From Candidatus Omnitrophota bacterium (GTDB taxonomy: Bacteria; Omnitrophota; Gorgyraeia; VGKN01): a DNA stretch of 64,000 bases. This document shows, in pieces, positions 1 to 37,400 of the stretch. Location: contig JAZDNB010000009.1 in NCBI GenBank assembly GCA_043800345.1, positions 27,340 through 91,339 on the forward strand. The letters run 5' to 3'. The notes under the pieces were generated by a model. It worked only from the letters and a program-made list of their open reading frames with translations. It was not told the origin of the DNA and did not search any database. The number at the start of each line of letters is the position of its first letter. The first letter of the stretch is position 1. Both the position numbers and the translations under genes were made by a program.

Positions 1-245
1 TAGGGGTAAACATAGATACGAGGGCACCGCCAACGAGGCAAGCCATCGTAAAGCTCCTCGGACCTCTTTCTAACATCATCCTCCTTAGCCTATCCTCATA
101 CCTCCTTGCCAATACCCAGCTCTCAGGGTTCCTCGGCGCTCTCACTATCTGGGTGGTTATCTCTTCAGCGTTCAGCATCGTTGCCTCAGTACGCGGCTAT
201 ACTACCTATAAGACAGGCGACCTCTACGAGGCGGTAGAGCTGCTC
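1..245 (+). repeat. Copy 1 (3' portion only) of the hydrophobic module. The window opens inside this repeat.
   Basis: Encodes GVNIDTRAPPTRQAIVKLLGPLSNIILLSLSSYLLANTQLSGFLGALTIWVVISSAFSIVASVRGYTTYKTGDLYEA. Aligns to 12328-12575 and 14455-14700. Confidence 0.85.
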
Positions 246-12200: not shown

Positions 12201-15200
12201 ACCGTCTTAAACTGGATAACGAGGATACTGGGACTACCCGCCATAGTTATGGAAGAACTCATCTCCCATTATCTTATCGGTAATTTCTTTGCACGGGTAC
12301 ATCTCCAGAGCCCAACCTTGAGCTATGTAGGGGTAAACATCGATACAAGAGCACCTCCTCTGCGTCAAGCCATCGTAAAGCTCCTCGGACCTCTTTCTAA
12401 CATCATTCTCCTTAGCCTATCCGCATACCTCTTATCTTCTACCCATCTTTCCGGGCTCCTTAGCGTAATTACCGCCTGGTCTTTAGTTGCCTCAGTACTC
12501 AGCATCGTTGCCTCAGTGCGCGGCTACGCTACCTATAAGACAGGCGACCTCTATGAGGCGGCGCAGCTCTTAAAAGGGAAATACCCAAGACTTATTTCTT
12601 TCCTGGGAATTGAAGAAAGCCGCCTGCTTAGCACACTTTCTAAAATTTCTATTACGTGTGCAATAGCGGCAGTCGTTACCCTTTATTCATTCTTCCGTGT
12701 TAATATCTTCTCCTCTTATACGCGCCCTATAGTCGGAGCGGATGTTTTTATATCTTTCCTGGCCGTTGCTGCATGGTTAATGTGGGTCCGCGAAATCTTT
12801 AATACTATATTTAACAGGGCATTATACATCTTGCGTAAGGGAATTCCCGAACTTACCAGAAGATCTCTTGTTGTTCTTATTGCTACAGGCATTATTGTTA
12901 TGACAAGCGTACTGGCTCCTTTCACCCCGACACTTAACTCAGACACATCTTATATGGCTAGTACGAGTACCCCCCTGGTTCAAAAAAATAATTTTGCCCA
13001 GCTCCCCAGTCAGCGCCTTCCAATAATTCAGGTGACGCCGGAGCTATATCGTGCGCCCGCAGCGCAAGAAGCACTGAGACAGATCACAAAAGAAGAACAG
13101 ACGACCCTTAACGTTATTTTCTCCGAATATGTTGCCCTAAAGAATACGCTAAGAAATAACGGGATAACACAAGAAGAAATCAATGCGCAGGCCGCCCGTT
13201 TTCTTACATCTCAGCTTAGCGCCAGGTGCCCAAGGCTTTATCCTCTATACCGGGAATTTGAAAGACTGTGTACGCGCTATGGCGAAGAAGGGCGCGTTCT
13301 CTTAGCGCTTGGTGCCGGAAGGGATCCTATTTTTGCCCCCCTTATCTCATTTTTTTCCGGTTATCTCGGATTTGGAAAGTATATCAAAGGCGAAGTTCCT
13401 ACTCATGCGGCATTAGTCTCATTAACAGGAGAGGGTAGTCCCATCATGTATGAGATGATACCGGGAAAAGACGTACGCGCTACCTCATTGATCGAATTTT
13501 TCATGCGGTATCCAACCGCGCAGTTATATCTCTTCCCGAAGACCGATACGACGTTGTTTGACGAATTATCCGTTTATTTACAACAACAGGTGGGGGCTAA
13601 GTCAGCATTCGGATATTTCAGCTGGGTTAACGGAAGATTTTTCGGAGGTTATTGCAGTGAATTTATTTATTCAGTGCTTATCAAGATATTTGGAAGTCAT
13701 TTTTCCATAGCACTTCCCGCATATCCACCTACAAACGGATGGTTGTTTTTTAGTCCTTTTGTGATGGGCTCAAAGATCATCTCGCCTCTGCAGCTGGGAG
13801 GATTAACAATTGACGGTAAGCCGCTCCAGCTTATATTTGAAGGTCCCGGATTTAGCGAGACTGTTGCTGCTGCCTTAGTAAGAAATATAGGTAACCTATT
13901 TATATGGGCAGGAAATCGCCTCATCAATGTAGTTAACAATACTGTCAGTCCGGTCTTCCAGCAGGTCCTGTTGTTTGTAGCAACAGGCGTTATACCTTTA
14001 CTGGTATTAGCAAAGAGAAGATTATTTTCATCCCGCCCCGCGCAAGAAACAACAAATGAGGCAGAAGCCGAAGGGCTAACTCTTCGAGAAAAATTAGAAA
14101 TAATCAGCGGAGTCTCCTTCATAGAGATTTTAGTAATTAAACTTTTATCCAACTATGTCGCCATCCCCCTTGCAATAGCGATACCGCTTTTGGCTTCTTT
14201 CATTTTATATGCAGCAGTAAAAAGAATCCCTCTTGAAACACAGGAAGATGCGCGGGATATTGATAAACGCGATACTACCCAATCCGCCCTTGCCAATTTC
14301 TTCACCTACGCCCTGAAAGGTAAGTTTACCGTCTTAAACTGGATAACGAGGATAGTGGGACTACCCGCCATAGTGATAGAGGAGGTCATCTCCCACTATC
14401 TTATCGGTAATCTCTTCGCACGGGTACGTCTGCAGAGACCGACCTTAGGCTATGTAGGGGTAAGCATCGATACGAGGGCACCGCCAACAAGGCAAGCCAT
14501 CGTAAAGCTTCTCGGTCCTCTTTCTAACATCATCCTCCTTGGCCTCTCCGCATACCTCCTTGCCAATACCCAGCTCTCGGGGCTCTTGAGCGCTCTCACT
14601 ATCTGGGCAGTTATCTCTTCAGCGCTCAGCATCGTTGCCTCACTACGCGGCTACACTACCTATAAGACAGGTGACCTCTATGAGGCGGCGCAGCTACTTA
14701 GGAAGACCAAAAAGCAACTTGAGCTGTCAGCAGATGATGAAATAATGCTAGGTACCATGACTCACGGGTGGGGTACCGGCATAAGATGGATGGTAGAGAA
14801 AGAGTCGATACGAGACCTGTGGACAATATCCAAACAATTTGAATTCCAGTTTGGCAATCTAAAAAAACGTTTTCTAAAAACCGAACATGCAAAACTATCT
14901 CCCTATGAACAGAAAATTTTCGATAAATTGGGAGAGCTCTACGTAGCGCTTACCGCATATAAACCTTCTTCGGTAACAATAGGAAAAGCGCTGGAAGGAA
15001 TTCTCAGCGAAGCAAGACGTCAGGAAGGAATTGACATTGCCGAACTCGGGGCTGCCCTAACAGAACTAGAGCAACGTTACGCAAATATTGAGAATGAATT
15101 TAAGCAACAGAAAACCCATGAAGAAATCGCCGCTAACCTCAAACAGGCAATGGCAGCGGCGCTACGTGCTATGATGCCCGGAACCCTGCAAGAAGAAATC

Positions 15201-18200
15201 ACAAGCCATCCTTTCTGGGGCAGGGCAATAGGATTTATGGTAGAGCATTATATTCCCGTAAGAGATCCTCGATATGTGGGCAGGCCCATCCAGGAACTTT
15301 ACCTCATCCTTCAGGAAACCATTAACACGTTATTTACCGAATACCATTACAAACAAGACGGACAGTATGAAGATAGCTATAAAGAAGTCAAGGCAAGAGC
15401 CAGAGAAAACGCTCTGCTTGCAGTAGGGATTATCCGTCCGATACTGAATGAAGTTTTTCAAAACGGCCCTCAAGTGGTTATCGGCGAAGATGAAAATCTG
15501 CGGCGTATCGTTACAAGTTTAGAAAATCAAAAACGGCATCTTACAGAACTTGACTATCAGGAATATATCGCACTTGCGCCTGAAGAAAGAAAATCAAGGG
15601 AGCCGGTTATCACCCGCATGGTCGAAGAAGAACGCAGCAAAAAAATGCATTGGCTTGCGTGGCCTGGACAGAATGAGTTCATCCATGAATTATTTATGGT
15701 GCGTGCTGAAGTATTAATCGGCGAAGATGCAAATTTGCACCACAGGTTTGCAAACTTAATAAGACAGAAACGGCGTCTTGCAGAACTTGCCTATCAGGAA
15801 TATATCGCACTTGCGCCTGAAGAAAGAAAATCAAGGGAGCCGGTTATCACCCGTATGGTCGAAGAAGAACGTAGCAGAAAAATACTTTGGTTTGCCTGGC
15901 CGGGACAGAATAAATTTATCCATGAATTATTTATGCTGCGCGCCGAACTGGAGACAGTGTATCTGTTAGCAATTGCCGGCAATACGATGGATTTTGGAGA
16001 CCAAAAGTTTGTCGCGCGCATTGAACAGGCACAGAAAGAAGGAAAAAGCAGTTTTGACTTTCTGCTTGAAGATGTGGTGAAGATATTTGAAGACGGCCTG
16101 AGTGCTCCTCATAACGTGGATGAAATGTTGGCAGATTTAGTAAAAGGAAGAAACCTCTTAGGAGCCAGACAAAAAAGAATGGGTGACGATTTTTCAGATG
16201 AATATCGTCCGAAGATTACCGTCCTATACGATAATGCGGGAGAGGATATACTGGAATTACTGCACGTTGAATTTTTATTACGATTAGGATTTAACGTGAA
16301 TATGGCAGGAAGGGCACTTCCCGTAATAAACGATGCTACGGCCGATGAATTACGAGATATAGTTACCTGTGTATCATTCCCCGACTATATGGACCGCGTG
16401 GACAAGGCCCGGAAAGCGCTGGGGATTAAAAATGACGCTGCCTGGCGCCAGCTTACACGGCTCAGAGGCGACTTCAACGTGAATTTTAGGATAAGACAAA
16501 GATGTAAGGCATTATCAAGCGGCTCTCGTCTCTACGGAACCGTTCCTGCGCAAATGAGCGAGGAATGCAAAAAAGAAATAGCAGAGTCCTTTATGGTTAT
16601 CGGTTTTGGCCAGGGGAATTTTGAAAGCGTATGGCCGGTATTATGGACACGGCCGTTTTATCATGTCCTGATGCTTAAGACCGCGGCACGGCTTGGAAAG
16701 ACGTTTTCCGACCATTTTAAGGATATGAGCAGGATTATCCTCTGCAATCCGGCGACAAACCGCGAAGAAGAAGAAAAGGCGGAGCAACAGCTGGCGGTAT
16801 CGGCAGGAGGTCTGAAGGCGTTAAATGCCGACGATCCAAGAGTTATAGCCGTGCTTAACGCAATGCGTGCCCACTTCGGAGAAAGGCTTCCAAGCTCGTT
16901 ATCCAATATATTTATCAGGGTCGAAAATTTTATTCCCGGCGGTGTAGTTGGCGAGACGCAGATAGCTATGGCGGCAGAGCGGGCAGTAAAGAAGATGTTC
17001 GGCAAAAACGTGCTTATCGGCCCTGACGAAGAGCAGCTTAGGCTCTTAGGGCAGGCGGGCAATGAAGATATGTGGTTTGTGGTGCTGAGCGGTAAGTACT
17101 TATATATAGGAGATAATACCCACATAGGACCGAATTCCATAGTGGATAATAGCCGGCTTGGCGCTAATTGTCTCGTGGTAGATTCAATGCTGGATAATAC
17201 CTCGCTAAGCGCCGGTACGACCGCAAGGCGTTTAATAAACCGCAGGGGGATTTTATCAAGAGGCCTGAAACTTGAAGATTATGGGGAGATTATGGAGCAT
17301 GGCAGCATTGAGCCGCTCTCGGCAAGAAAGGTGTTTCTGCGCGAGTTACGCAAAAAAGGAGTTACGATAATTGCCCCCTGGCTTACCTATATTGATTCCT
17401 CTGTCACCGCAGATCAGATAGAAGAAGGCGTAGTGCTGCTTCCCGGCGTAGTTATCAGGCAGGATGATGAGGCCAAAGGAAGCGTCCGCATAGGAAAGGG
17501 ATGCGTTCTTGGTTTGGGCGCAAAGATAACAAATACCGTTATAGAATCTTCCGTAGAAAGGCCTACCGAGGTTATTTCCTCATCATTAATGGATTGCCAT
17601 GTTGGAAGCGGTATTAAGATGACATTGGAAGAGCTAGAAAGAGAATCGATCGTTTCCGGCACTTTAAAACCACAGGAAGAACAATTACCGGTCGGATTAT
17701 TATTTGATGAACAGGGTAGCATAACAGGAAGACGTTACAGGATCAACCCACATTCTGTTTTAGAGACAGTATCTAACGAGGAGTATTACCGCCTAAGCCA
17801 AGCCGCCATGAAGGAATATCGGCAGGACTTAAGAAAAAGGCTTGCCGATAGCAGGGAAAAGGCTGAGGAGCTCGCCAAAGAAAAGGGAAGGCCTGTGACA
17901 GCGCGTAAGAGGAATAATGTAACACGATCAATAGAGTTTGTATTATCGCTTGCGCATCTGCCTCAGATATTGGCAGAGCGGTACGTATATGATTGTTTGT
18001 CAAAGACTACAGCCGTTTCTCCCTTGCAAAGGAGCAAGGAAAGGTATAACCGGGCGGCTTTTTGCGAACATCCCTTTGCAGATGATAATGAGACCACATA
18101 CTATTCATTCTTAAGAAGAGAACTCTATAAGATACCGGATGAATCAAAACGTCTTATATGCGCCTTAAAACTTGTTGCATTGGGTAATTACTTTGACCGG

Positions 18201-21200
18201 GATGAGGTATTAAGGAGCGATGGAAAGTTTGCCCATCTGGTACGCCTTATCAGAGAAGATGGGCTCGAGAAGGCATTAGATGATGAGGATATCAGACGTT
18301 ACTTCAGCGCGACATTTGAAGACTCGCAACAGTTTGTTGACGATTTACTAGCTTCTCAAAAGGGGATAAGGACGATAGATGCAAGGGGCAAGGGAACGGT
18401 TCTTCTGAGCGCAAATGACTGCGGTCTAGAAGCGGCTATGCATATGATTCTTGCAGAAGCGCTGACCGATTGCAACTTTAAAGTCGTTATCACGGCAAAT
18501 AACAGTCCTATGGGGCATGATTTAGACGTACGAGACGTCCATGACTTATTCGGTAAAGACAAAAGCGCGGTAGTAAGGGTTTATGGAAAAGAACAATTGG
18601 TGAGCGAAGAATTGGTGCGCTGTTTCAACGAAGGAAGGGTGAGGGTTATTTCAGACGGTTCCGGCACCCGCGGTATCAATCCTGTCGATGTGAGTAGTGA
18701 TTTATACGATGTTATAATGAATCAGGAAGACGCATTGGCATGGATATTGACAGGCGGTTCAAACCTGTCGAATGTTCTTCCGGTGGGACGTGAAATTCCG
18801 CAGCCGAAACTTTACCTTGCTAACAATGACCGTAAAGTACAGATTGTTGTCGGCAAGGCAAATATGAATGTTGAAGAAGAAAGGGCCCTTATCTATTATC
18901 AGCCATATAAGAAAATCTTAAAAATGGAGAGGGATCTTGAAGAACAGTGGAGCGAAATTAGCGACGAATTAATGATTCAGCCCTCGTTTATGGTATGGAC
19001 GAGAGAATGGCACGATGAGAGAAAAGTGCCCCAATTTGCAAAAAATGCTACCTCTAAGATAAAGGAAGCGTTGAGATTTCTTGAAACAAAAGATGAATCG
19101 CTGATCCGCCGAGCACGGTTGCTTGAAGTTGAACTGGTAGAATCGGGCCCGCATATAAAAACTAGATTCCGCAGTAGTTTTGATAAGGTATTTTTTGTCA
19201 ATCCTAAGACCGGCACCGTCTATATAGACAAGAAATTTTTTGAATCCGTTATTGTAAGAAAAGACAGCGAGCTTATCCTGGCTACTATTTTAGGCAAAGC
19301 CGCTACTATGGTGCAATCCCTGGAGACCTATGAAAGGGAAAATCACATAATTTCAAAAGAAGCGATTAGCAGTTGCAACAGGCTGAGCGAGACAACGGGA
19401 AAAATGATCTATCTGGAATTTGATAATGTAGTCGATGATTTCTTGGCAACCGAAGAAACGAAAGCGGCAAGAAGCAGAACGGAGCGGTTTATTAATATAT
19501 TACCCGCCCGCATAAGGCCGGCAATATCAAGGAGTTTGGAGCAAATAAATACCCTGTTGCTTAAGGCCCTGGACGGGATTCACAAACGGCTCTGCGAGAT
19601 AGTGTTTAACCAAGCGCATCTCTCAAGATTGACAAATGACCTTGAGTTGGTTGCCGATGCGATTAAAGTAAAAGATCTGCGTAACAAGCGCATAAAAAAT
19701 ATCCTTAATGGTCTCGGCGGCTCGTTTGTGCGTTTTAGCACTCTTCGTATGATATATAGGGTTTTGATGTTTGGTAATTATCTTACCTATCGCGGCATAG
19801 GCAGAAACGGAGAGGTAAGAAGCGTAGCGCTTAACCATATAAGCAGCCATGGCGTTTACAATTTCTTACGGGTCATCGATGATTTTCAGAGGGGCAGAAA
19901 CGTTAATTTGGGAGAGCTTAGTGTATATGTCCAAAATTACTCAGAATTATTAAAAGATATCCGCAGCCACCTTGAGTATTTACAAACCGTACATAAACGC
20001 TTAGCGGCTATACCATCCGTAGAATACAGAAACGGTATTCATATAACCTATGAACGTTGGGCAGGAGGAAGTATTTATGAATTTGTCATCAATAACGAAA
20101 ATATATCCATAGGGGAAGTCGTAAAAGTCATAGAAGAAATCGCCTCAGAACAGTCGCATGAGCCCCGGACTCTGGAACCCGTAGGCGTGGTGAGAGAAAT
20201 GCCGACATTCAGGTTGCTTGGCAGGCCCGGCGTAATCGGCGGCTTCTTTAGAGTTCGTGGAGGAAAAATAGATGCAGGGATACAGCAGGTTATACTTAGT
20301 CAGCAGTCAGAGCGTCGCACAAAAGCCCAGGCGTATTTCCCAAAAAGAGAGGTTACCTACGGATATATTGCCCCTGAGGCATTGCATCCTCTTGCGGCTA
20401 CATTTATACAGATGAGAGAATTTTCTGATGACGCTGAGGGGTACAACGAGGCAGAGGATTTTGTAAACGCAATTACAAAAGCAAAAACCCCGAAGGATAT
20501 TCTCTATGCAGCATTTTTCCAGGCAATGACGCCTCACAAACCAAGGGAATTTTCACATAAAAAAACGAAATATATCTTGGACCTTGACCTTATTGAAATC
20601 TTAGGCGAGGTCTTATTCATTCTTGGGCAGTTCAAGGAAAGCGATTTTCCTGAAGGCAGTTACCTATATTGGCATGAGGCTATGAGGGCGCTGAAGGCCT
20701 CAATGCTTTCTCAGGAGGTTGCCTCGCACCAGGTGAGGTTAGATCCAATGGTGAAAGAAGTCGTTATAGATTTATTTAGCAAAATTAAAAAAGCAAACCT
20801 TCATAACCATCTTAGCGGATCGGTACGGCCTGAGCTACTGCTCATTACCCTCTTAAAAAGCTATAAGGCGCGCGAGAGATTTGTAGAAGTGATAGTTGTA
20901 AACGACGAGCAGGTCTACCGCAATAAAAGGAAATATAAGACATTGCAGGAGGCATACGAAGAAGACAAAACTCAGGATCCCCGCATAGAGGCGCTGAGTT
21001 TTAATGAATGGGTTGACCTTAAATTCCGCAGGGCATTTGAACTTCCTTCCGATTCAATGAAGATATTAAGTTCATTCATTTCGCAATATTCTGATACCTA
21101 CGGTTTTGACTGTCTCAGAGAGCTTGATATAAGAGAGCTTCTTAAGTCAGAGCCCGTACTTGTAGAACAATGGCAAAACGCAGTGCGCCATATGTGGTCT

Positions 21201-24200
21201 TTTATAGAGTATAAACCTTTTGAGGCGAGAAATGAAATTGACCTCATGGGATATTTTTATAAGCTTGAGCCTGTCTATTGCGTGCTTAAGAGCGACATCG
21301 GAAACGAGGCCACCCGTCTCTTTGTAAAAGATTTAGCCATAGACCTTTTTACCAAAGACGGGGTTAGAGTTTTTGAGCTTATGACCGCAGGTTCCTCCCA
21401 GACCGCGGTTATGGAAACGGGCGGTGTTATACGTCAAAAAAGCAGAGAAGCTATAGCCATAGAACTTGAAAATAAACTTGTCCCTACGCTTGAAGGATTA
21501 ATAGAGGCGGAAAAAGAACTTAACGGAAAGCTTGCCACGGGACTGCAGGTTCTTTTGCTCAAGGAGGACTATAGAAATTTGGGTGTTGAAAAAATGCGAA
21601 TAGAACAAGAAGCGCTCAGTCGTGCCGGAGATTTAAGCGGCGAAGATATTATTAAATATATATTAGGCCCATACAGACAGAGAACAGGCGTGACTAATGA
21701 AGATTTAGAACTTACTCTGGGAACAAGGGTTTTTAACAGAATGAGGAATGCCATGGGGACCGGAGGGGTGACCAGGCAGATAGCCGATGAAATAGGGCCA
21801 GAGGCACTCCAGAGGATATATGTACGTCTTGAAGTCCTGGCAAGGGTTCAGGAGGTTATCGACGCCCAGGTTGACGGTATTATTGCATTAAAAGAAAGAT
21901 GGCAGACTGAAAAGCCGGAATATGCCCAGCGTTTAGTATCTATTGGTACTGCGGGAGAGGAAATTGATTTTGTCTCTTGGACCCACAGAAGGGCGCTGCG
22001 CAAAGCCTCTCAATATGGTTTTAAAATTACCGCGCATGCTGGTGAAGAAATAAGAGATCCGATTGCGTCGGTGGAAAGGGTTAAGTATGTTGCCAAATCC
22101 GTGGATGACGGCGGCTATCAGGCAAACAGGGTTGACCATGCCACTATTATTTCGGTCCATCCGGAAAGACTGCAGGGTTTCCGTTCTCCCAGAGAGCTAT
22201 TTGAGTTGCGCCAAAAACAAATAGAAGCTACCCAGCTTTTGGTGCAGATGGGGGTTCCCGTTACCAAATGCCTGGTAAGTAACCGTTGGATAAGCAAAGT
22301 ACTCCTGGGGGATGATGAGATGCAAATACACTTTTTGTTAAAGATTATGCCTTCCTTGATTGTCCTCTCCCCGGACAACCGCCAAGTATTCGGCAGGGTT
22401 GATGGTGTATCGGAAGAGCTAATCCGCGCCGATACCTCTCCGACGCTTGAAGAGTTATGGGAGTATAATTGCAATATTCGCTACGGAGAATTGTTGACTA
22501 TTGTCGATAATGGTTTTCGGTCTACATTTGTCCAGCCGGAACGGGTGCAAAGCGTATTAGCTTCTGAGCCCGAAGAAACGTCCCGGCTAGCCGCTACCTC
22601 CGGTGCCGAAGAAGAAGCCATAGGCCCAGAGGAAGGGTTTACCGCGAAATCCCTTATAAGCATGTTTATCGGCATTGGCTTAGGCGCACTGCTTGGTATA
22701 GCCTTCCACAGCGTGCTTGCCGGCGGTATTGTCGGTTTTATTTTCTTTAGCCAGATACTTTCAATAATTATAGCGACTTCAAGGTTGAAACATCCGGTTC
22801 TTATAGAGGATGGTAACGTAAAAGCACTCAAAGAAAGACCTGCGCTTTCCAATTTCTTTAAGCTCGCAGGACATACCGCCGATACCGTATATATTAACCC
22901 TTACCTTCCGGAATTCTTCCAGAGATGGTACCTGTTCCACGAGCAGAATGAACAATTGCTGGAAAAAAGACTGCCCAAGCCCATTACGGAACTCATCGCA
23001 ACCGCCTTAGATGTCAGCTATATTCCTATCTCCGTAGGTAGTCTTATGCTTCAGAAGGCAAAGAGTATCCAGGCAAGAATACCCTCCGGTATTTTTGTAT
23101 GGAAAAAAACGGAAGCGTTTCCTTCCGTCCCAGTATCGTCAGGTCTTGATGAGCAGGTATTTGTAAGCGAAGCATCAAGGAGGGAAATCGTCTTTTTTGG
23201 CTCAGGATACATAGGTTTAGTTGCCGCCGCCTGTCTTGCGGATAAGGGGCACAACGTGACGCTTATCGATGTCAACGAAGATACGATTAGCAAATTGCAA
23301 AAAGGCGAGATCCATATTTATGAGCCCGGGCTTAAAGACCTAATAGCAAGAAATAAAGAACGGTTACACTTTGTGTTAAATAGAGCGGGTACCGATACCC
23401 CCGAAGCAGTAGCTGCCACAGAGAGAGCCGATATTATTTATACCTGTGTCGGAACGCCCCAGTCCGACGACGGTTCGGCAAATCTGACATACGTGAAAGA
23501 AGTCGCTACTACGCTTGGAAAGGTCCTTAAAAACGTCTCACGCGATAAGATAATCATCATGAAGTCCACGGTTCCCATAGGGACAACGGAAGGCGAGAAT
23601 TTCGGGGAGGTTATCTATTCCATTGTAGATGAACAATCGCGGAAGTTTATCCATCTTGTAGATAATCCTGAATTTACACGGGAAGGCCAGGCGGTTTCTG
23701 ATTTTATGAAACCGGATAGAACCGTGATAGGAATAAAAGAAGCCGATGCATATGCGCAAGCAGAGATGCGCCTTTTTTATTCGGCTTTCGAAGGCAAAGG
23801 ATACGGAGAATTCCTGCTCACCGACGTGCGGAGCGCAGAACTTATAAAATACGGTTCAAACGGTTTTCTCGCCCTCAAAATTTCATTTATCAACGAACTT
23901 TCTATTCTTGCCGAAAGGTTCGGATTCGATATAAAGATAATAGCCGATCATATCGGAAAAGACCGTCGCATCGGCAGGGCATTCTTAAATGCCTCCCTGG
24001 GTTTCGGCGGTTCGTGTTTCCCGAAAGATGTCCAGGCATTCTGCCATACCGTTGAGATGGCGGGGGTAAGCGATGAAATACCGCATCAGGTAATAGATGT
24101 AAACGAACGACAGAAGAAACGGTTTGTAAAAAGAATCGCCGATTCCTTAAGGAAAGTTGGCGCGCAGGGTCCGGTGACTGTTTCTGTCTGGGGGCTCGCG

Positions 24201-27200
24201 TTTAAGGATAACACCGACGATATACGGGAATCCTCTTCCCTGTATATCATAAGGGATCTTATTGAATCCGCCAAAGCAGCCGGTATTGATATAACAATCA
24301 GGGCCTATGACCCTAACCCGGGCGCATGTCATAATACGAGCTCAAGAACTATAGCCCAGGGAGGGCTTAAAGAACTTATCGACGAAGGAAGCGTCATAAT
24401 ATGCGACAATATCGAAGAGTCGCTTGAAGGCTCTTATGCGATGGTAATTGCCACGGAATGGAAGAATTGGTCAAGGCAGACAGGCAGACCTTTTGGCTTA
24501 AATGATAAGAAAAATCTAAGATACATAGAGGGACGTTTAAAAGGCAGGCTGATATTTGACGGAAGAAACCTCATCGACAAACCGGCACTGCTGGGGACAG
24601 GTCTTACCTATCACTCTGTAGGTCGGCCCGTCTATTACGGCAATTACATTAAAAATTTTATAAGCTCGTTCATAAATCTTTTTAGGCAATGCACCTTCTA
24701 TGGATATGTAATATACTATTGCCTCTCGACCCCCGGATATCGCAGGTTATTATTCAAGAAGGAAGGTCTTGGCTTTACCCTTTGGGAACTTGGCAGACTT
24801 TCAGCGCTTTATTTGAAAGCAACCTTTGCCTATATCATATATGAAGTTGCCGAGAATAAAGGAGCAAACGGCGACGAAGTGCTTAAGGGAATGGGTTATG
24901 ACAGGCGTATCGGCCCCGAATATTTTAAACCAACTCCGGGTAGAGGAGGCCCCTATCTGCCCACGGCAACGAAACTCCTGGTCCAGATAGGAGAAGATTT
25001 CCTCAAACGAGAAGACATTCCCGACGTTACCGATAAACAAAAGCAGCTTCGAGCCAGGGTAAGAAATCTGGAGTTATTAGCAAGCATCGATAAGGCCAAT
25101 GAAGGCCAGGTTATCAAGGTTATGGCGCGCTTAAGAACAGCCCTCGGCGTTGAAAAGGTTGCCGGCGGAAATATAGCCGTATTAGGTACCGCTTATAAAG
25201 GCGCGGCATCTTCTATAGAAGGTTCTGTCGCCATGCGCATTATCACAGACCACCTTGCCTATTGTAGTAGTATAGTAGTATTTGAGCCTGATCCCGAAGC
25301 AAGGGCCAGGGCAAAGAAGATGCTTAAAAATTCCACCAATGTCATTTTTGCCGAAAACATGGATGACTTAAAGAACAAGGCAAGGGGGGTCGGCGGGTTA
25401 GATGCACTCTTAATTCTCACTGATAATGAGGAATTTAAATTGCTCGATACCTCCGGTATTAGAAAGCGTACCGCCAAGATGGTCGTATATGATACCTGTA
25501 ATGTGACAGATCCGGCGAATTTTACGGACAAACCCCATGTTATTTATATCAGAACGGGAAGACCCATGTTTATGGGAATGGAAGTGCTTCCAAGAAACGG
25601 AAACAGAGGCTCGCCTGTTTTGGCGCGAGCAGCCGAAACCCAGCACTCTCTCTTGGTGTCAACCCTCTATAATAACTTTAATTCTGCCGGCACGATTATC
25701 ACACGGATTGTATGGGGCGTGCTGTGGCTTACTGCATTAGTGACAGTCGGGATAAGCCATGAGTTTACCCATATGATATCCGCCCTTAGCCTGTCCCTGA
25801 AAGTAACAAGAAAACGCGAATTCTACAAAGGCAATATTTCGATTGACGGACCTCCCCAAAGGGTTAATATTGCAAAGGCCCTTGCCCCGCTTGCCGGACC
25901 GTTTATCATCCCGCTTTTCCTAACCGCCGTTTCTTTACTGTTAAATGTTCAAATCGACATACCCAATTGGATAAAAATCCTCTACTTAGGTTTTAGCGTA
26001 GTATCTTTCATATATGACCTGTCGTCCGAAGGAGACCTTGCCGAACTATACCGTCCCCTTAAAGGGAGAGTTCAGAATTTCGCCTCAAAGTTATTCGGGG
26101 CCGATGCGAGCCTATTACCAAAAAAGATAGGATTAGCCGTAGTTATTTTCGGAACTATAGGCCTGCTTAATATTGTTTTAATGTGTATTTTTCTCCCATA
26201 TCCCGATGTATTACTTATTCTCTGGGGTAATTTTGGTTTTGGTGTTTTGCTGTTCATTTTTGCAATATTGGGATGGCTGGATACTCTATCCGAACGCATA
26301 GAAAAATTCTATTACATGCATCTATGGCAAAAAGCGCTCCCCTCATACTATACACACGAGGCTTGGAAGGTGGCAAAGGAAAACAGGGTTATTTTCCCAT
26401 ATCTACACGGAGAGGGAAGCAGGGTATCGGAACCGAATACGTACAAATATTTTACCCTTTTCAAATTCGGCGATCCTGAGGCAATAAGAGAATATTCGGA
26501 ATATATGGCGAGCCATATTCGCTATGACATTTCGTCGGATATAGAACCGGAAGAATCAGAATATTATGATTTTTTTGACCCCGAAAAATGGGTTGTATTA
26601 TCCAAGGTTCACCCGGTTCCACCATTACACTCGACACAAATGCTCGGACGTTTATTAGCAGAACGCCTTAAAGTTAAACTCGTAAGCCTGAACGAGCGCA
26701 GTTCTTTCGGAAACTACTCTAAACTTTCACTGGATGAGCGAGAAAAAGTAGTTTATGGGAATTTGGTTGTAGAAAATCCAGAAGAAGTGCGCGGTAAAAA
26801 TGTCATCATATATGACGATGTGAGTATAAGCGGTTTTACCCTGATGGAAATGGCCCGTGCGGCATTTGCGGCAGGCGCCAGGTCCGTAAGAGCCTATACG
26901 ATGTTTGATCCGAAAAATGACCCGAAGTTTGAAATAGGGGCATATAGATATCTGATGTATGAACATCCTGAACTTGTACTACCTATTTTGCAGAGCGATA
27001 TGTCCATAGCGCAGACAGCCATAAAATATCTGATGCGTTTTGCAAGCGAATCGCCCGATGCCTTTGAAAATTTGATGAGACAGGTGAAAGATGAGCGACT
27101 CAGAGAAATTTTAGATCTCGTTACGTCATACCTGCAAATTACATCAAAGGAAGATACGCTTAATCCTACCCCACTCTTTAACATCATTACATCGTTACTT

Positions 27201-30200
27201 CCTGCTCGTGCCTATGCAGAGCGTCCGGACTCCGAGGTTAAACCTGTCGAGATAGGTTTTGCTGTTACCGTTGATAGAGATGGCAAAACAGAAGTGGATC
27301 ATTCTTTAAATGCAAATGCAATCTTTTCTACGCCTGAGATAATAGAACAAGTCGGTGCTCATTTAGCAAAAGCCGTTGATGATAGTATCGACATAAGCAG
27401 GTTTACGCCAGGTGCATATCCGGCCGGGCTCCATATAGTTGCGCCTAATCGTTCCGGAATGCTGACTGCAATAGCATTAGAGAGACAGTTAGGGTGTTCC
27501 CTGCACCGTTTTGATGAAGATTTTCCATGGTTAAAAAAGGGCGATGCAATAATCATAGCTATAGATAAGCCAACCCGGGAACTTCTTAAGATATTAAAAA
27601 TATGCGAGGCAAAGGGGATTTTTGTAGCAGCGGTTTGTACATTGACAAAAAATAATATCTCTAATGTAGAGAAGTATTTAAAAAGGAAAGGCATTCCTTT
27701 TGTATCTTCACCTCATATTCATACGATGTTCGGGGATTTAAATGTTGATATGCAGGACAGAGAACTCTTAGCACCTTTGTTGACTGGAGAATCTTCTCTC
27801 GGCGAAAGATTACAAGGCCTCAAACAGTTAAAAGACAAATCGTTGCGGGGGACATTGCCAAATGAATTTTGCGATTCCATGTTAACCGCCATGGAGGACT
27901 GGCCGAGTCCTTCGCTTGCGGTATTATACGCTTATCAGATGGGCTATAACTACATTACTTTTACTGATAGGCGGGATATAACGCCTGAAGCAACCAAAGA
28001 GGCGCTCGAGGCCGCGCGAATACTGAAAATTTCCGTATGCAGTCCGTATTATACGACGCTTAAAAGGGCAACGTATTATCCCGAAGAAATTGCTCTGCAA
28101 ACGCAATTGCTTAGCGCCATCCCTGAACTTGATATGTTTCAGAGAAAGGTAAAAGAGTCCCGCGGGGTTCTAAAGAGAGGAATAGAGCACTTAAATAAAG
28201 ACGGTATCACGAGTCCTGATCCATACCTGGCATTATCGGCGCAATATTCAAGACAGATCGAAGAGATTGTGCAAGCCTTATGTCCGGTAGTGCTTGAACA
28301 TTTAAGAAGAACTATCCCCGGATTCAAATTAACAGAACAGGATTTTGCACTCTGCATAGGCGGTTCTGCCGCAGGAAGAACAGCTACATTAGCATCAGAT
28401 TTAGAGGTTGATTTTATTGCACGAGACGAAAAGAGCGCAGATGCCGTTACGGAACATTTTGCACCGCTACTAGCCCAGTGCTTACGAACAATCGGAATTG
28501 AGATAACGCCGCCCGATGACTTATTCCGCGCACAGCTTAGAGAACGCCATCTCATTAAAGTAGATAAGCTATTTGACTATCGGGTTGGGGCGTATTCAGA
28601 GCAGGCAAAAGGTTTAATTCGGGCGTTAAGCTATGAATTTGCGTGGGGCTCAAAAGATGTTTATAGTAATTTTATGGCAAGCGTACCTCCTGAACTTAAA
28701 CCCGATATTCCTCATGACATCATGTCACGTATGACAGAGTTCACCGATGGTTATCTGCGTCTATCCGAAGACGGAGAGGGGGAGTTTGACGGGCGTAATT
28801 TCGTAGTATCTGTTGATAGCGAGCGCGACTTAATAATGAACGTGCAGCGTTCATTAAGAGTATTCCAGATAGGTTTATTTGAGAGCCTGGTAAGGAAGTT
28901 GCCGCAATATCTTATGTCAGGTCTGAATCCATCGCTTACTGAGGATGCAATACCGCGAACTATCCCCGAACTTCTTGTTTTCATGAATGAGAGAGGATTT
29001 TTCGGAGATATTATTCCGCAGCAGGAAATAGAGAAGGTTGTTCTGGCCTGGAAACGTACTATTATGGCGCGCCAGATAAAAGTTGCATTAACAGGTGGGC
29101 TTAATAGTGCAGTCAGCTTAGGACAGTTGCCGCCTACGCTTTTGAATGATTTCGTAATCCTGCACGATTTTATCTTAAGTCATGTGATAACGAGAAGGTC
29201 TATTTTTCAGACTAAGATACAAAGATTATTGGGAGAACTGGCATTTTCCATATTTACACGTCTCATGAGAGATGCAGCGGATACTACTTATGATGAAAAT
29301 AGCAGACATTTTGATATCCGGGGGACTATGCGTCATGCTGTCACGGAACAGTCAAGGCTCTTAGAAGCCGTGCGCTATTTAAGGGAGGCGGCCGCTGCAT
29401 ATGCTGCTGGAGATGCGGAGGCATATGAAAAATCCCTGCGCGCCTACGGCGAATACCAGCGAGCTCTCTATGAAGATTTAAAAATTAATTATAGAAATAC
29501 GGATCCTTCGCTTGAGGTCCTCTGCGAATTCGCTAACAAGCTGCCCAAGGTTCTCGGTGCATCGCATATCCCCGGCTGGGGAGGAAATATCGGTATTTGG
29601 GCAGACGAAAAGGATGTAATCGCAATACGCAGAACAATAACAAACTTTATCCGCTCAGACGGTTATCGTAATGTACTTCAAAAACAATACCCAGATCTTT
29701 CTCCGAAGGAGATAAACGAAAAGGTTATGGCAACCGTTAGGGGAGTTATTATATTTACTCCCGGGCCTGCTGCAAATACCGTGATTGAGGGAGATGTAGA
29801 CAGATTGATAGAAGCCTTAAGGGATCCCAATTCTTCAACAGTTGCTTTATTAAAGAAAATCTACGGAGAAGAAGATACTTACAGGGATGGACAGAAATTC
29901 GCATATTATGAGCTGGCGCGCCAAAGATATCTCAGCTTGCTTGAGGAATTTAAGAGGCTCCATCCTGATGCAAAAAATATTGTCGTATCCCGAAGCGGTG
30001 GCAGGGTTATTTTTGCAGGGACACATTCAGATTATCACTACGGGAGGGTTCTTAATGCACCTACATTATCCGATACTCTGGTTGTGATGGCCATAAATCC
30101 ATTGTCGAATCAGGTTCAGGCAAACACCATGGATGAATTATTCCCGCAAGCCAGTTTTAATCCGGAACGCCTTGATATTATAAACATTCCAAAAGAAGAC

Positions 30201-33200
30201 TTAAACACAACCCAATGGTACCGATATGTCGCATATACGCTTTATTTCCTATCTCAGATGATACGTCGGTCAGAAGGAAGGACTCTCGATCAACCCGGGT
30301 TGTATATCTTAGTTGACGGCAGACCCGAGGATAAGGCACTGCCCGTAGGAGCGGGGCTCAGTTCTTCGGCGGCATTAGACGTTGCAGTTTCAATCGCCTT
30401 CCTTGGGTTAACCGGAAGAAAACTTACCGCAAGCCAGATTACGGCTGCCTGCCAGGAAGCAGAGCATGCCTTAGGTTTCCCCTGCGGAGCACAGGATCCG
30501 TTCGGGGCTATGCGCGGTTGGCTTCCCGGCGCAGAGCCGGATAAAATGTACGGACAGCTTATGGACTGTCTGCCAATGGTGGATGCAGGCGGTAGGCCTG
30601 TTTTTAATGCAGAACTTGTAGAGCTACCACCAGGACTTAATGCCGTATTAATAAATACAGGCGCAAAGAGCCCAAGATGGCCGCTTGAATTTTCCGCAAG
30701 AGTTGCCGAAGGAATGCTGGGTACGTTTATGTTAGCGCATATGTTACGTCAGAGATTCCAGACTCAGTTTGACGGACTTCTCAGAGAAGGCGATATGGAG
30801 GAAAGATACTATAGCGATGAAGCAAGCGGTGTCAGGGTAAAACCCGAAAATGCGGGAACATTCCCCTTATTTTATAAACCTTTCCTTGTTTCTTTTCCGG
30901 AACTAAGAAGACTGGGAATAGATATAAGCGAAAGAGAGCTGGCGCATATGATAGATATGCTGCCAAAAGATATGACCAAGGCGCAACTGGTAAAGATTCT
31001 GGGATGGTTACTGTATAACGATCTTTTTGCTTTAGGCGGGCTTAAAGAAGAAAATGTCGATGCTGTGTTTACGATGCTTGCAAAAGGCATTGAGGCAAGT
31101 TTCGACGGCAAAGACTTCGAAAGAGAACGATTGGAAGAGCTAAAAGCTGCGATTAGAAATGAACTAAAAGCGCAGGTAAGCATGCAGGAATTAGAACCTC
31201 CGTCTGCGTCAGTAACAGTTTTTGAAGAATCAAAAGTAGCGAAAGCCTCAGAAGTAGAAGAGAAAGATATAAGAGGCGTAATAAGGGATGATCACGATAG
31301 GCTTTATTCCGAAGCAATGGGGGAGGCATTGGCATTGAGGGCCGTAACCCAGCCCACCAATGTGGTTATATGTCTTACTACGTATGAAAGCGCGGAGTTT
31401 ATAGAACGAACACTCGATGAAATCATGAAAGAAATAAAATACTTCCCCAATTTTTACCGTGTTCAGATATTTGTGTCTCCAAACGGACCGGGATGTAATG
31501 AGATAACAAGCCGAATACAAGAATTTTTCCGCACCAGGGCGCCCGGTTTTGCTTCCCGTGTTTCTGTCTTGCCGCTTACCTTGGGAGGACAAATGTATGC
31601 ACAGCAGTCGATGGTCAAGACGATTAAGGCGCATCCAAAATTTTTCGGGGAAAATCCGATGTTATTATGGATAGAAGATGATGTAAGATTTCTAGACGGT
31701 TCTCTCTATAAAGTTGCGGAAACGTTAAGGACACAGACGATAGAAAAACGCCAGGCCCTCCTTGTAGGGTGCCGCAAAGTCAGGCTTAATCCGGAATCGG
31801 TAAGACAAAAACCGCAAGGGATTTTAAGAAGAATTATGGGCTCAGTCCTTAACGGCAGCGAAAATGAGGATTCGCTCACCAGGACACAACACCTTTCGCG
31901 GGCTATCCCTTCCATGACAGGTTCGAACCTGGCGTTATGGGCTGATGCATGGCCTCTTCGAACATACGATGCGCTTCTCTATAATAAGGTTGGCATTTAT
32001 CCCGATACCGTGCTGCTCAATCTCTTTCATCACTCGGTTCCCGAAGCGGGCATGCGTACCATACCGGTTGAAGATGCAGTAGTATATCAACTTTCGTCGA
32101 GTTCCTTTAGTGAGCGTTTGAGCCGTGAGACAGCTCCCCGCTCAAGAGAAAATTATTTTCCTGTAAGACACGGAAGGATTCTTATAAGCGGTACTCCTCA
32201 TCCGCTTGACTCACTGAAAACGCGTATAACAGTTTTCCTGCGCTACCTCGTCTATGCATACCTGACCGAGCCAACGAGGCGCCGCATAACAAGATCCGGT
32301 TTGACAAAAAGTATAGAAGAAGCCACCTGGACAAGGGCGCAAGAAACATTGGATTGGTCTGACAAAAATACGGATGTCATTCAAGTCAGAACCCTGGATT
32401 CTCATAGACCCGAACATCGTATCCTGCAAGAAGGGATTACTTTTACACAACAACTGTTAGCATATAAATATGCTAGAGAAGATAGGATGGTGCAGGGAGG
32501 AGAAAGATTTGGCATACGTGCAAAGGAAATAGAAAACTCGCCAGCTGCAACATTAGCTATACGGGTTATGAACAAAACACTTAGCCGCCTTAGGAGGGAA
32601 TATCCTCACTCCCGATATAGTGTCGATGACTATAAGCATCTTTTGGCGTATTCTGTACTTGCGCAAGGCTCGCCAAGCGAGATCAGGGCGTTTAAGGTAT
32701 TTTTATTGTCAGGGATGAGTGCAAAAGCAATGAAAAAACGTATTGTCGAAATGCTGAAAAATGGTTTATATGACCTGGTAGAACGCGAAATTCTAAATAT
32801 AGTGGATGCCGATACTATAGATGATGTTCTTCCTTATACGATAGCATATGATAATACTATTTCGCCCAAAAAACGCATAGAGATACTGCTTACCTATCTT
32901 ACTACGGGACAACTGCTTTATAAGGCGGAAGAATTAATCCCTGAAAGATTAGCGCAATCGTATGCAGATATATATAATCAATATACGAACCCTTCAGGGA
33001 AGTGGTTATTTAAAACTACCGATGCGGTATCGTGCGCGCGGCTCTTTAAAGCAAAGCGGCGTATCGCCAAAGGTAACATGGCAGCGGTTGAAAAGTTAAA
33101 CAGAGAGTTTATCCGAGGGTATTACCAGCTTAACCCAAGACAGCGAGCGCAATTAAGTTTGGCACTTCTTAATGAAGAAAACCCGCAATTGTTAGAGCGG

Positions 33201-34426: not shown

Positions 34427-37400
34427 ATGATAGACTGGCAAACAGGAAATAAAAAATTTTGGATTCGCATAATAGCCATTATAATAGCCGAGGTTTTCTT
34501 TTTCACCGGTTTTGACCTTCCATGGGAAACTAATAGCCTGGCATACGCGGCCAGCGAAAAACTAGTTCCCCCCCTTAAGACCGATAAGGAAGGAACGGAT
34601 AGCAGAGAGGAAAATAGGGCAAATGTAATTAGTGCGTCTCTCCTTGTCTATTCGGAACTTTTCCCTCAATTATCCCCCCGCGAGATAATGCAGAAAGTTT
34701 CTAATGAACTGTGTTTTCCCATCACCTGGTACAATGCAATGGGTACCTTTCTGGAAGAGGAAAATGTTAACCCCCGCCATTATATTTTTGAAATTGGAAA
34801 TAAATATTATGAAGTAAAACTGGACATAGTAGAAAAAACCGTGATACAGCATCTAAGAGAGGTGCAACAAATAGTTATGGCACAAAAAATACAGCAAGGT
34901 GAATTTGTGTGTTTAGCTGATATTGTGCCTCAGGGATTGTTGACCGAAGCCAACCAAGGTAAGGCCAACATGAACATTTCCGAAGTAACCCTTCCGGAGG
35001 GAGTACACACTGTATTTAAAGTTGATGACGAAGGAAACATGAATATGGTATCGCAAGATGCGTTGCTAGAAGAAGCCAGAGAGGGCGTAGAATATAACAG
35101 CCTGTTTTTAAAAGTAGGTACGGTTGCCTATATAGTTTTATTAAGGGTCGGACTAGGTGCCGTAGGACCGGAGAATTTACCAAAAGAATTAGTAGAGATT
35201 ATCGGCACTAAAGCAGTAGAAGAATTATTGGCGTTAGATATGGCAAGACATGAAGAGCTTGGTTCGCTCGATGCTCCTTTCGTGCTTCGGTTCATGGATG
35301 TAACTGCTGCCTCTGAAACTCATTTTATGCTTGTAGAGAGCAAGGGAGGAGCGCTCCTGGATAATGAAGCGCGAAATATAACGGTGCTTGAAGTTGAAGC
35401 GGCGAATGTTGATTTTCCAGAATGGATGTGGCCGCGGCCTCACTCACCTCCGCAAGAGAACTCTTTTTTAGTCGCAGTTCTTCCTATCAAGCTTTCTATT
35501 GCCTCTACTACTACGGTAGCGGGTCTATCTGAAGATAAAGATTCAAGAAGAGAAACTGCGGGATTTCCTTCTCAAGATGAGGCCCTTCAACTTGTACAAG
35601 AAGCAAGTCAACATTTAAAAAGGGATGGTATAGTAGCGATTGGAAGTGACCCTTCCAGCATGACTTTTTTGGCGCCACAAGCTGTTGACTCAAAAGCCTC
35701 ACCGCTTCAAACCATACATCCTCAACAAACAAGCAGTGCTATTGTTAATGTTTCAAACACTGCGGCAGCAACTCCTGAGTTGCAGATAATAACCAGTACA
35801 ATAACGCCATCTCAGGAATTTACACCACCCACAGCCACCACAGCAGCCGTTTTCCCTGCAGGAACCACAACTCTTTCTTCTCGACTACCCACGGACATAG
35901 CCGGCACAGTAACATCATCGCAGGAATTTACAGAACCTGTCACTACAGTTCTATCTGCAATATCTCCTGAGGCATCAGTAGCTTCTCCCAAACCGCAAGT
36001 AGCAGTCACTTCAGTAACGCCGTCGCAGGAATTTGCAGCACCCATAGCCGTCGCAGGAGCTGTTATATCTGCAGAAACCACAACTATTTCTCCTGAACCG
36101 CGAGTAGTAGCTAGTACAATAGTACCATCGCAAGAATTTGCGAAGCCCACTGCTACAGTAGAAACCGTTATATCTCACACTATTCCTGTTCAAGCAATAT
36201 CTGTACCTCTAGGAGAAGGGGTAAGAGAGAGAGCTCAAAGAGCAATTACACCTTTAGCCGAGCGATATAGACGAGAGTCGCTAAAGATGCGCGAAAAATT
36301 GAATACATATACACCGCTTGAAAAGGTGTTGTCCGAAGAAATCCTGCCCGAACTAAAAAGATTATTTACACAATATCTTGAACATCCTGAGACTAGCAGG
36401 GAAAGTGGGCCTATTGCGGCGTTTCTTGTTTCTGGAGAAAGCGGAAGCGGGAAGACAACAAGTGTGAAACTAGCCAAAGAATTGTTTATTAAGGAATTAA
36501 CTGCTCTTGCCCTTAAAAAAGGCCGACAAATCGTAGAACCCGTTCTGCACTTACTTTTTGATGACTATATGTTACAGCAAGAAGATAGACCTATTGATCC
36601 CGCGACAGACAAAACTACAGAAAATCCACTTGAGAAATTTCAGATAGAAAGATTCCTGAAAGATTTGACAGCCCTCTTAAAAGGAAAAACAATCTATAAG
36701 CCCGTGTTTGATTCTGATACCAGAGGCCGTGTTAAGTTTGGATTAGATGATAGGGGGATATATGTGGTAAGCGGCTATGTTAAATTTGGTGATGAACGGA
36801 AAGAACTTAAATGTTATATAGAAGTAGATAGTCACACGCAAGTACCTTATCTTGTATTCGAAGGTAAACGATATACAGAGATGCCTTTTAGCTCAATCCC
36901 GATATCCGTTCGAAGGAATGAAAAAGGGAATATCGTTGTCAATATCAGGGGGAGCGATAATGTGATTATTAGTAATGAAGCAGGAGATATTTTTGTTTCT
37001 GCGGGTGATGTCAAGAGAACTCTCGAAAAAGAGAAACAATTAGAGGCGCTTGAAATAATATCACCCCAGGACAAGGTATTGATTATAGAGGGAATTTTGA
37101 CACTTTTTGATAAGGATTTGTGTGACAGATGCCTCACTATGGCGGTGAGAGGAGATTTTGATGCGCGCATACTACGCCAGCTTATCAGAGCGAGTAAAGA
37201 AACAGGACGTAAAACAAGTGACGAGGAATTTATTCGGCATCGTATCGAACTGGTAAATCAGGAAGAGGTTCCCTATGTTATTCCTACACTGAAAAATGCA
37301 CAATGGACTGTTACTACTCTCTCCCGCTCGGAGGCTATTTATGTTTTGTATAGGCATGGACAGCTAGAAAATCCTACTGCCAAGGTTCGCGGTGTCCTTA

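Follow-up and report, generated by a model that had tools for sequence, protein, structure and literature searches.

Why should a giant bacterial protein carry a complete UDP-glucose dehydrogenase (UGDH) and, behind it in the same chain, half of a second one stripped of its active site? The question is raised by 64,000 nucleotides of DNA from a Candidatus Omnitrophota bacterium (assembly GCA_043800345.1, contig JAZDNB010000009.1, positions 27,340 to 91,339 of the forward strand), a stretch referred to below as the window. The UGDH region lies in frame within the first of two giant open reading frames (ORFs) and covers positions 23184-25568, with the order N-M-C-linker-M'-C' (Table 1). N, M and C are the NAD-binding, central and UDP-sugar-binding domains of the complete copy (copy 1); M' and C' are the central and C-terminal domains of the half-copy (copy 2). 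In our reading, based on the sequence and on structure prediction, the dead half-copy is probably a built-in dimer partner of the live UGDH; the geometry of the resulting pseudo-dimer, the donation of an arginine and the activity are likewise deduced.

A Complete Enzyme Followed by a Half-Copy

The Pfam analysis of the region detected one PF03721 domain and two stretches each of PF00984 and PF03720. A preliminary description of this DNA had placed the region at 23185-25570, within 2 nt of the boundaries found here, and had listed the motifs GxGYVG, NPEFxREG, GFGGSCFPKD and FDGRN in the first copy. All of them are present in frame, with GSGYIG as the form of the first (nt 23199), followed by NPEFTREG (nt 23664), GFGGSCFPKD (nt 24000) and FDGRN (nt 24555). 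The M domain of copy 1 contains the Lys/Asn catalytic helix (AELIKYGSN), the DRRIG loop and the catalytic Cys of GFGGSCFPKD, and its C domain carries the UDP-binding motifs FKDNTDDIRES and FDGRN. Copy 1, which holds the single PF03721 domain, scores 426.7 bits against TIGR03026, the model of the nucleotide-sugar dehydrogenase family (UDP-glucose/GDP-mannose dehydrogenases), above its curated cut-off of 189.8. When copy 1 was aligned with 26 homologues (27 sequences), the columns K222, N226, R262, C278, K281, D282, E163, E167, T344-D346, R348 and D459-N462 were invariant. Its best homologues (39-41% identity) are named UDP-glucose 6-dehydrogenase, and the copy 1 part of the structural model matches solved UGDHs with template modelling (TM) scores, normalised to the target, of 0.87-0.91. 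By these features copy 1 is a complete UGDH and probably works as an NAD-dependent UDP-sugar 6-dehydrogenase. Another FDGRN, found further along the ORF (nt 28785, aa 9545), was considered as a UGDH site and judged a chance match, because no UGDH domain was detected around it.

The preliminary description had put a second UGDH-like central and C-terminal region, with GRGGPYLPTA in the place of GFGGSCFPKD, directly after the first copy. This region does exist downstream in the same ORF, as the second PF00984 and PF03720 stretches, but it is set off from copy 1 by a linker of 49 residues, for which the model confidence is low. The copy 2 segment alone matches the solved UGDH 4A7P (E 1e-12, chain residues 222-443) and also copy 1, with 22% identity (E 2e-7), similarities far above chance level. 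Modelled alone with 62 homologues, it reached a predicted local distance difference test score (pLDDT) of 89.2 and a predicted TM score (pTM) of 0.87. In a Foldseek comparison of this model with solved structures, all of the 50 top matches were UGDHs, with TM scores (normalised to the query) of 0.72-0.76 and root-mean-square deviations of 2.6-3.4 Å over approximately 267 columns. The UGDH-like fold on which the preliminary description depended was therefore found in the second segment. By sequence and by model, copy 2 is a genuine UGDH central and C-terminal fold, read from nt 24780 to its end without a stop codon or frameshift.

The same segment has lost the means of catalysis. Its NAD-binding domain is absent, as the sole PF03721 match of the region belongs to copy 1 and just the linker precedes M'. 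In the catalytic helix of M' (LWELGRLSALYLK, nt 24780), Lys has been replaced by Glu and Asn by Leu. GRGGPYLPTA (nt 24939) stands where a live UGDH has GxGGSCFPKD and is followed by a 19-residue insertion. In C', YKGAASSIEGS replaces FKxxTDDxRES (nt 25194) and YDTCN replaces FDGRN (nt 25488). The DRRIG loop is kept in M' (nt 24900-24914, aa 8250-8254), with its arginine at residue 8252.

A residue census gave the same picture. At the 38 positions conserved in at least 90% of 62 UGDHs, copy 2 keeps 22, which are structural Gly/Pro residues plus D55-R57-I58-G59 of the DRRIG loop. The 16 that are lost include the equivalents of Streptococcus pyogenes K204, N208, C260, K263 and D264, together with the UDP-contacting TDDxR and DGR. 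The replacements are C to Y, K to E, N to L, K to T and D to A, with ASSxE for TDDxR and DTC for DGR. Without a Rossmann domain, copy 2 would be unable to bind NAD, and with its Cys, Lys, Asn, Asp and UDP-contacting residues all replaced, it could neither bind a UDP-sugar nor oxidise it. On these grounds copy 2 is predicted to be catalytically dead, in agreement with the earlier claim that it lacks both the Cys and the Rossmann domain.

Table 1. Features of the window, with the UGDH module first and the surrounding ORFs and genes after it (HMM, hidden Markov model; positions in nucleotides of the window).
Feature	Position	Strand	Residues	Details
UGDH copy 1, NAD-binding (Rossmann) domain N	23184..23789	+	aa 7678-7879	PF03721 E 1.7e-50; own domain HMM 189 bits
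UGDH copy 1, central (dimerisation) domain M	23823..24122	+	aa 7891-7990	PF00984 E 2.7e-40, profile positions 1-93/94
UGDH copy 1, UDP-sugar-binding domain C	24177..24632	+	aa 8009-8160	PF03720 E 5.4e-29; ends HSVGRP
Linker	24633..24779	+	aa 8161-8209 (49 residues)	aromatic/hydrophobic; low model confidence
Dead copy, central domain M'	24780..25160	+	aa 8210-8336	second PF00984 stretch
Dead copy, C-terminal Rossmann-like domain C'	25161..25568	+	aa 8337-8472	second PF03720 stretch; ends YIRTGRP
Giant ORF 1	153..34280	+	11,375 aa	
Giant ORF 2	34427..59404	+	8,325 aa	
TolC-like outer-membrane efflux protein	59755-62454		899 aa	UVR and AMIN matches; downstream of the giant ORFs
HlyD-type membrane-fusion protein	62500-63852		450 aa	downstream of the giant ORFs

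The Module in Other Proteins

The N-M-C-M'-C' module is present in at least four proteins besides that of the window. In an exhaustive HMMER search of 1.84 billion representative proteins, one orthologue (P0360) stood out with an E value of 1.4e-37, the runner-up reaching 9e-17. P0360 is MBM3253025.1, a partial protein of 2,779 residues that belongs to an Omnitrophota metagenome-assembled genome (MAG). Its collinearity with the window extends from the C domain of copy 1 through the linker and M'C' to the sequence Y(I/M)RTG(R/S)P; thereafter it diverges completely, running into a helicase where the window runs into membrane helices. Both proteins carry GGPYL, D(R/K)RIG and YDTCN, although the overall identity between them is only 32-38%.

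The same domain order was found with our own domain HMMs in three further proteins, referred to here as group B: P0370 (a JGI protein of 2,865 aa), P0408 (MDD5225744.1, 1,312 aa) and P0507 (MBI3316961.1, 1,317 aa). Three of the four relatives (P0360, P0408 and P0507) are named Candidatus Omnitrophota. The existing annotation of the four relatives reads only 'nucleotide sugar dehydrogenase', 'UDP-glucose/GDP-mannose dehydrogenase family protein' or 'hypothetical'. The group B proteins are soluble fusions with zero predicted membrane segments, in which the module is joined to a nucleoside-diphosphate kinase (NDK) in P0408 and to a UDP-glucose pyrophosphorylase-like domain in P0370. Both of these partners are enzymes that make the UGDH substrate. 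The search for close relatives by word index and pattern returned ordinary UGDHs only among 5.8 billion proteins (best E 1.8e-13), one ordinary UGDH only in the GTDB genomes, and none in the JGI metagenome contigs.

The dead copies have been kept in a consistent form. The M' domains of the window and of P0360 share 51% identity, compared with 41% for their live C domains; in group B, the pairwise identities are 45-49% for the dead copies and 48-55% for the live ones. The loss of the Cys in M' and an insertion of 19-30 residues after the GGxxL motif are common to all five dead copies. In every relative found, the dead copy follows a live UGDH directly on its downstream side, and no solitary dead copy was seen. 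In a neighbour-joining tree, crude and open to long-branch attraction, the five dead copies form one clade in 87.5% of the bootstraps, and none of them groups as sister to its neighbouring live copy. Judged by these comparisons, purifying selection acts on the dead copy, whose conservation comes close to that of the live one, and the module appears to be inherited as a unit in Candidatus Omnitrophota, within multi-enzyme nucleotide-sugar fusions. A recent tandem duplication of copy 1 was considered as the origin of copy 2 and rejected: copy 2 scores 63-76 bits with free-standing UGDHs versus 38.5 bits with copy 1, and the two are never sisters in the tree.

The linker has low confidence in the model (pLDDT < 50 at model residues 485-530), is weakly like that of P0360, and is absent or much shorter in group B. 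Within it, VIYYCLSTPG (24690-24740, aa ~8180-8197) resembles the IIYTCVGTP strand of the NAD domain of copy 1 (pairwise E 0.022), and P0360 has VTLICLTH at the matching place (aa ~165-180). This sequence may, on weak evidence, be the last trace of the deleted N domain of the dead copy.

A Proposed Dimer Partner in cis

It has been established that UGDH dimerises through the central domain, as the preliminary description had stated, and that an arginine is donated in trans (PMC3184952, PMC4794789). In the human enzyme, this residue is Arg260, which contacts the glucose in the partner subunit (PMC3184952); in S. pyogenes UGDH, it is Arg244, at a distance of 3.1 Å from the 2'' hydroxyl of the substrate bound by the partner (PMC4794789). 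No other residue of a UGDH subunit is known to act in the active site of its partner. Enzymes of this family form dimers and hexamers, and GDP-mannose dehydrogenase is a domain-swapped dimer (PMC4794789). At the sequence level, the arginine that the dead copy keeps in its DRRIG loop is the equivalent of the trans-acting arginine of the canonical dimers.

In the mechanism that we propose, M' would pack on the M domain of the live copy as the central domains of two UGDH subunits do, giving a pseudo-dimer within one chain. The interface provided by the second subunit in a canonical UGDH would come here from the dead half, which in the lineage of the window would probably also put Arg 8252 into the sugar pocket of the live copy. 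The partner would thus be provided in cis, stripped of all the parts not needed for partnering, in a module tethered between membrane-spanning segments of the 11,375-residue protein.

Structure prediction of the whole region as a single chain, the check suggested in the preliminary description, is consistent with this arrangement. The modelled chain comprises 819 residues, of which about 110, in the linker and the tail, are disordered; pLDDT is 73.9 and pTM 0.77. Copy 1 makes up approximately 57% of the chain and by our arithmetic could give a pTM of at most ~0.58 alone, so the value obtained corresponds to a mean positional error of about 5 Å for one half with respect to the other. This implies that the model places the two halves confidently relative to one another. 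The alignment behind it had 13 rows, all of them natural tandem UGDH fusions, because natural single UGDHs and fragments always aligned to copy 1 and never to copy 2.

A bolder form of the proposal is put forward more tentatively. Omnitrophota would possess a monomeric, single-chain UGDH in which a truncated dead paralogue in cis is obligatory for activity, through the central-domain interface and, in this lineage, through Arg 8252.

Comparison with Known Systems

The canonical bacterial UGDHs, such as BceC (2Y0C), UgdG (4A7P) and the S. pyogenes enzyme (1DLI), are obligate homodimers. Copy 1 shares with them the three domains, the catalytic motifs and the fold, and copy 2 shares the central and C-terminal fold. 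In contrast to these enzymes, the second 'subunit' of the window is covalently attached, lacks the NAD domain, is predicted to be dead, and resides inside an 11,375-residue membrane-anchored protein. The closest likeness is found in the public Omnitrophota relatives (P0408, P0507 and P0360) and in P0370, which share the N-M-C-M'-C' order, the Cys loss in M', the insertion after GGxxL and the fusion to nucleotide-sugar enzymes. Group B differs from the window in the loop DPVVG, which provides no trans arginine, in its short linkers and in its lack of predicted membrane segments.

Natural tandem UGDH-UGDH fusions (P0001, P0241-P0249 of ~945 aa, and P0252/P0253 of 910 aa; overall about 910-954 aa) likewise hold two UGDH units per chain. 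Their first half always has DPDVG and not the trans-arginine loop, and in P0252/P0253 it is degenerate, being also without GxGYVG and the Cys. Unlike the module of the window, which has no second NAD domain, these fusions carry all three domains in both halves, and the degenerate half is N-terminal. Their halves cluster with each other in the tree, apart from the copies of the window, which marks their duplication as separate from the Omnitrophota module. The tandem fusions are therefore an independent precedent, some of them with a degenerate half. P0268 fuses a 2-hydroxyacid dehydrogenase to two different nucleotide-sugar dehydrogenases. Many UGDHs of ~940 residues among P0257-P0359, several of them named as Chloroflexi-type MAGs, are long not through duplication but through an intein that carries a LAGLIDADG endonuclease (PF14890, PF14528).

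The principle that a dead homologue can take the place of one subunit in a dimeric enzyme is known from the S-adenosylmethionine decarboxylase of trypanosomatids, where a dead paralogue, the prozyme, activates the live enzyme by heterodimerisation. The prozyme is a separate polypeptide, whereas the partner in the window is fused in cis and truncated.

Points against the Proposal and Alternative Roles

Several points weigh against a built-in dimer partner. The alignment used to model copy 2 consisted of UGDHs and favours a UGDH fold; the alignment of tandem fusions may bias the whole-chain model towards the arrangement of those fusions; and pTM is an indirect measure of the contact geometry between M and M'. 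Copy 1 itself stays below the NCBIfam equivalog cut-offs (419 vs 700 bits for TuaD, NF047673; 335 vs 670 for AglM), because of which UDP-glucose is its likely substrate, not an established one. In group B, DPVVG stands at the position of DxRIG in all three dead copies, and the live half of P0252/P0253 is also without an arginine-donating partner. Arginine donation was thus rejected as the general reason for a dead partner, since the residue is absent both from group B and from the partners in P0252 and P0253. It may be relevant in the lineage of the window, while the common denominator of the dead partners is the interface, or structural support. The rationale of the preliminary description, in which a pseudo-dimer suits an enzyme locked into a megaprotein, also proved too narrow. 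The module occurs in soluble proteins of 1,312 and 1,317 residues and is accordingly a trait of multi-enzyme fusions in the phylum, not specific to megaproteins; tandem UGDHs of ordinary size (~945 aa) exist as well.

Could the dead copy serve instead as a scaffold or sensor, docking other modules of the fusion or binding a nucleotide or sugar as a regulator, without any mimicry of a dimer? Its conservation implies some function, its neighbours are nucleotide-sugar enzymes (NDK, UDP-glucose pyrophosphorylase, galactokinase, PfkB and glycosyltransferases), and the insertion in every dead copy could make a new surface; the unconserved trans arginine of group B points the same way. We nevertheless consider this role unlikely. 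With the canonical UDP-binding residues lost, a ligand site would need to be new; M', the best-conserved part, is the dimerisation domain of the canonical enzymes (PMC3184952); and in the relatives found the copy invariably sits just downstream of a live UGDH, never by itself.

Pairing between chains, in which M'C' of one polypeptide would meet the live copy of another and drive oligomerisation of the giant protein, also counts against a partner acting in cis, and we give it a slightly smaller chance than the scaffold. The dimers, hexamers and domain swapping of the family (PMC4794789) make it conceivable, and the flexible 49-residue linker permits either topology. The whole-chain model, however, sets both halves confidently in one chain, the much shorter linkers of group B favour intra-chain pairing, and the high local concentration of the halves would be expected to do the same.

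A decaying, functionless remnant of a duplicated UGDH, tolerated in a very long ORF, would explain the missing catalytic residues and N domain and would suit an ORF with much unannotated sequence, but it is highly improbable and already largely refuted by the conservation data, given the identical substitutions in the distant P0360, a dead copy nearly as conserved as the live one in three further proteins, the open reading frame and a predicted fold with pLDDT 89.

The Module within the Giant ORFs

Long Pfam-free stretches separate islands of recognizable domains in both giant ORFs. The islands of ORF 1 are HEAT repeats, a GT4 glycosyltransferase, an ARMT1-like phosphatase, the UGDH region, a phosphoribosyltransferase, a galactokinase-like GHMP kinase and a PfkB sugar kinase. 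ORF 2 contains a uridine-kinase/PRK-like stretch, a starch-synthase catalytic domain (GT5), a weak alpha-amylase match and two metallo-beta-lactamase domains. Taken together, the domain set of the two ORFs reads like a fused pathway leading from sugar and uracil to UDP-sugar and then to polymer. Very long proteins of Candidatus Omnitrophota have been described in two preprints, with HEAT repeats, a 'sugar metabolism' module containing starch synthase and GT1, and anchoring in the inner membrane via membrane helices, without a signal peptide. The domain content of the giant proteins of the window agrees with these descriptions.

A hydropathy scan showed clusters of membrane helices, with two helices immediately before the UGDH region (aa 7496-7536) and five immediately after it (aa 8515-8712). 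The approximately five predicted helices at 25695-26290 come immediately past the dead copy; behind the first of them stands an HExxH-like motif, GISHEFTHM (HEFTH at 25758), which recalls an intramembrane metalloprotease. No Pfam family was matched by this membrane region at E values up to 1. Earlier in the same ORF, a direct repeat of 300 nt (12150-12449 and 14277-14576, 87% identity, spacing 2,127 nt) encodes a doubled membrane-helix segment, AIVKLLGPLSNIILL(S/G)LSA..., and this 12-14 kb stretch is the only one of the window in which GC and AT skew are both negative.

Directly 3' of the giant ORFs, the TolC-like and HlyD-type genes suggest an export system tied to those ORFs. An exact look-up of the 450-residue HlyD-type protein in a public collection gave no match.

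Significance

The UGDH family and the principle of a dead paralogue as partner are already known, and the module does not represent biology of a new kind. Precomputed domain annotation of public proteins already displays the doubled central and C-terminal pattern. Our literature search found no paper describing the N-M-C-M'-C' module or tandem UGDH-UGDH fusions. In text searches, neither preprint on the long Omnitrophota proteins mentions UGDH, and the 2026 preprint mentions no pseudo- or degenerate copies.

If the proposal is true, the module would represent an undescribed class of cis-acting pseudoenzyme activator. It would be the natural minimal single-chain form of an enzyme thought to require a partner subunit, and would show which parts of that partner are dispensable, namely the entire NAD domain and its own active-site residues. 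This could be of use in studies of UGDH cooperativity and in the design of monomeric UGDHs. A UGDH freed from homodimerisation would be wired one-to-one into membrane-tethered assembly lines for nucleotide sugars and polysaccharides. For the giant proteins of Omnitrophota, the module offers an enzymatic unit that is concrete, testable and, as its sequence indicates, probably active. Its surroundings comprise a galactokinase, a sugar kinase, a phosphoribosyltransferase, glycosyltransferases and a starch-synthase-like domain, a setting that supports the view of the giant proteins as membrane-tethered nucleotide-sugar and polysaccharide factories.

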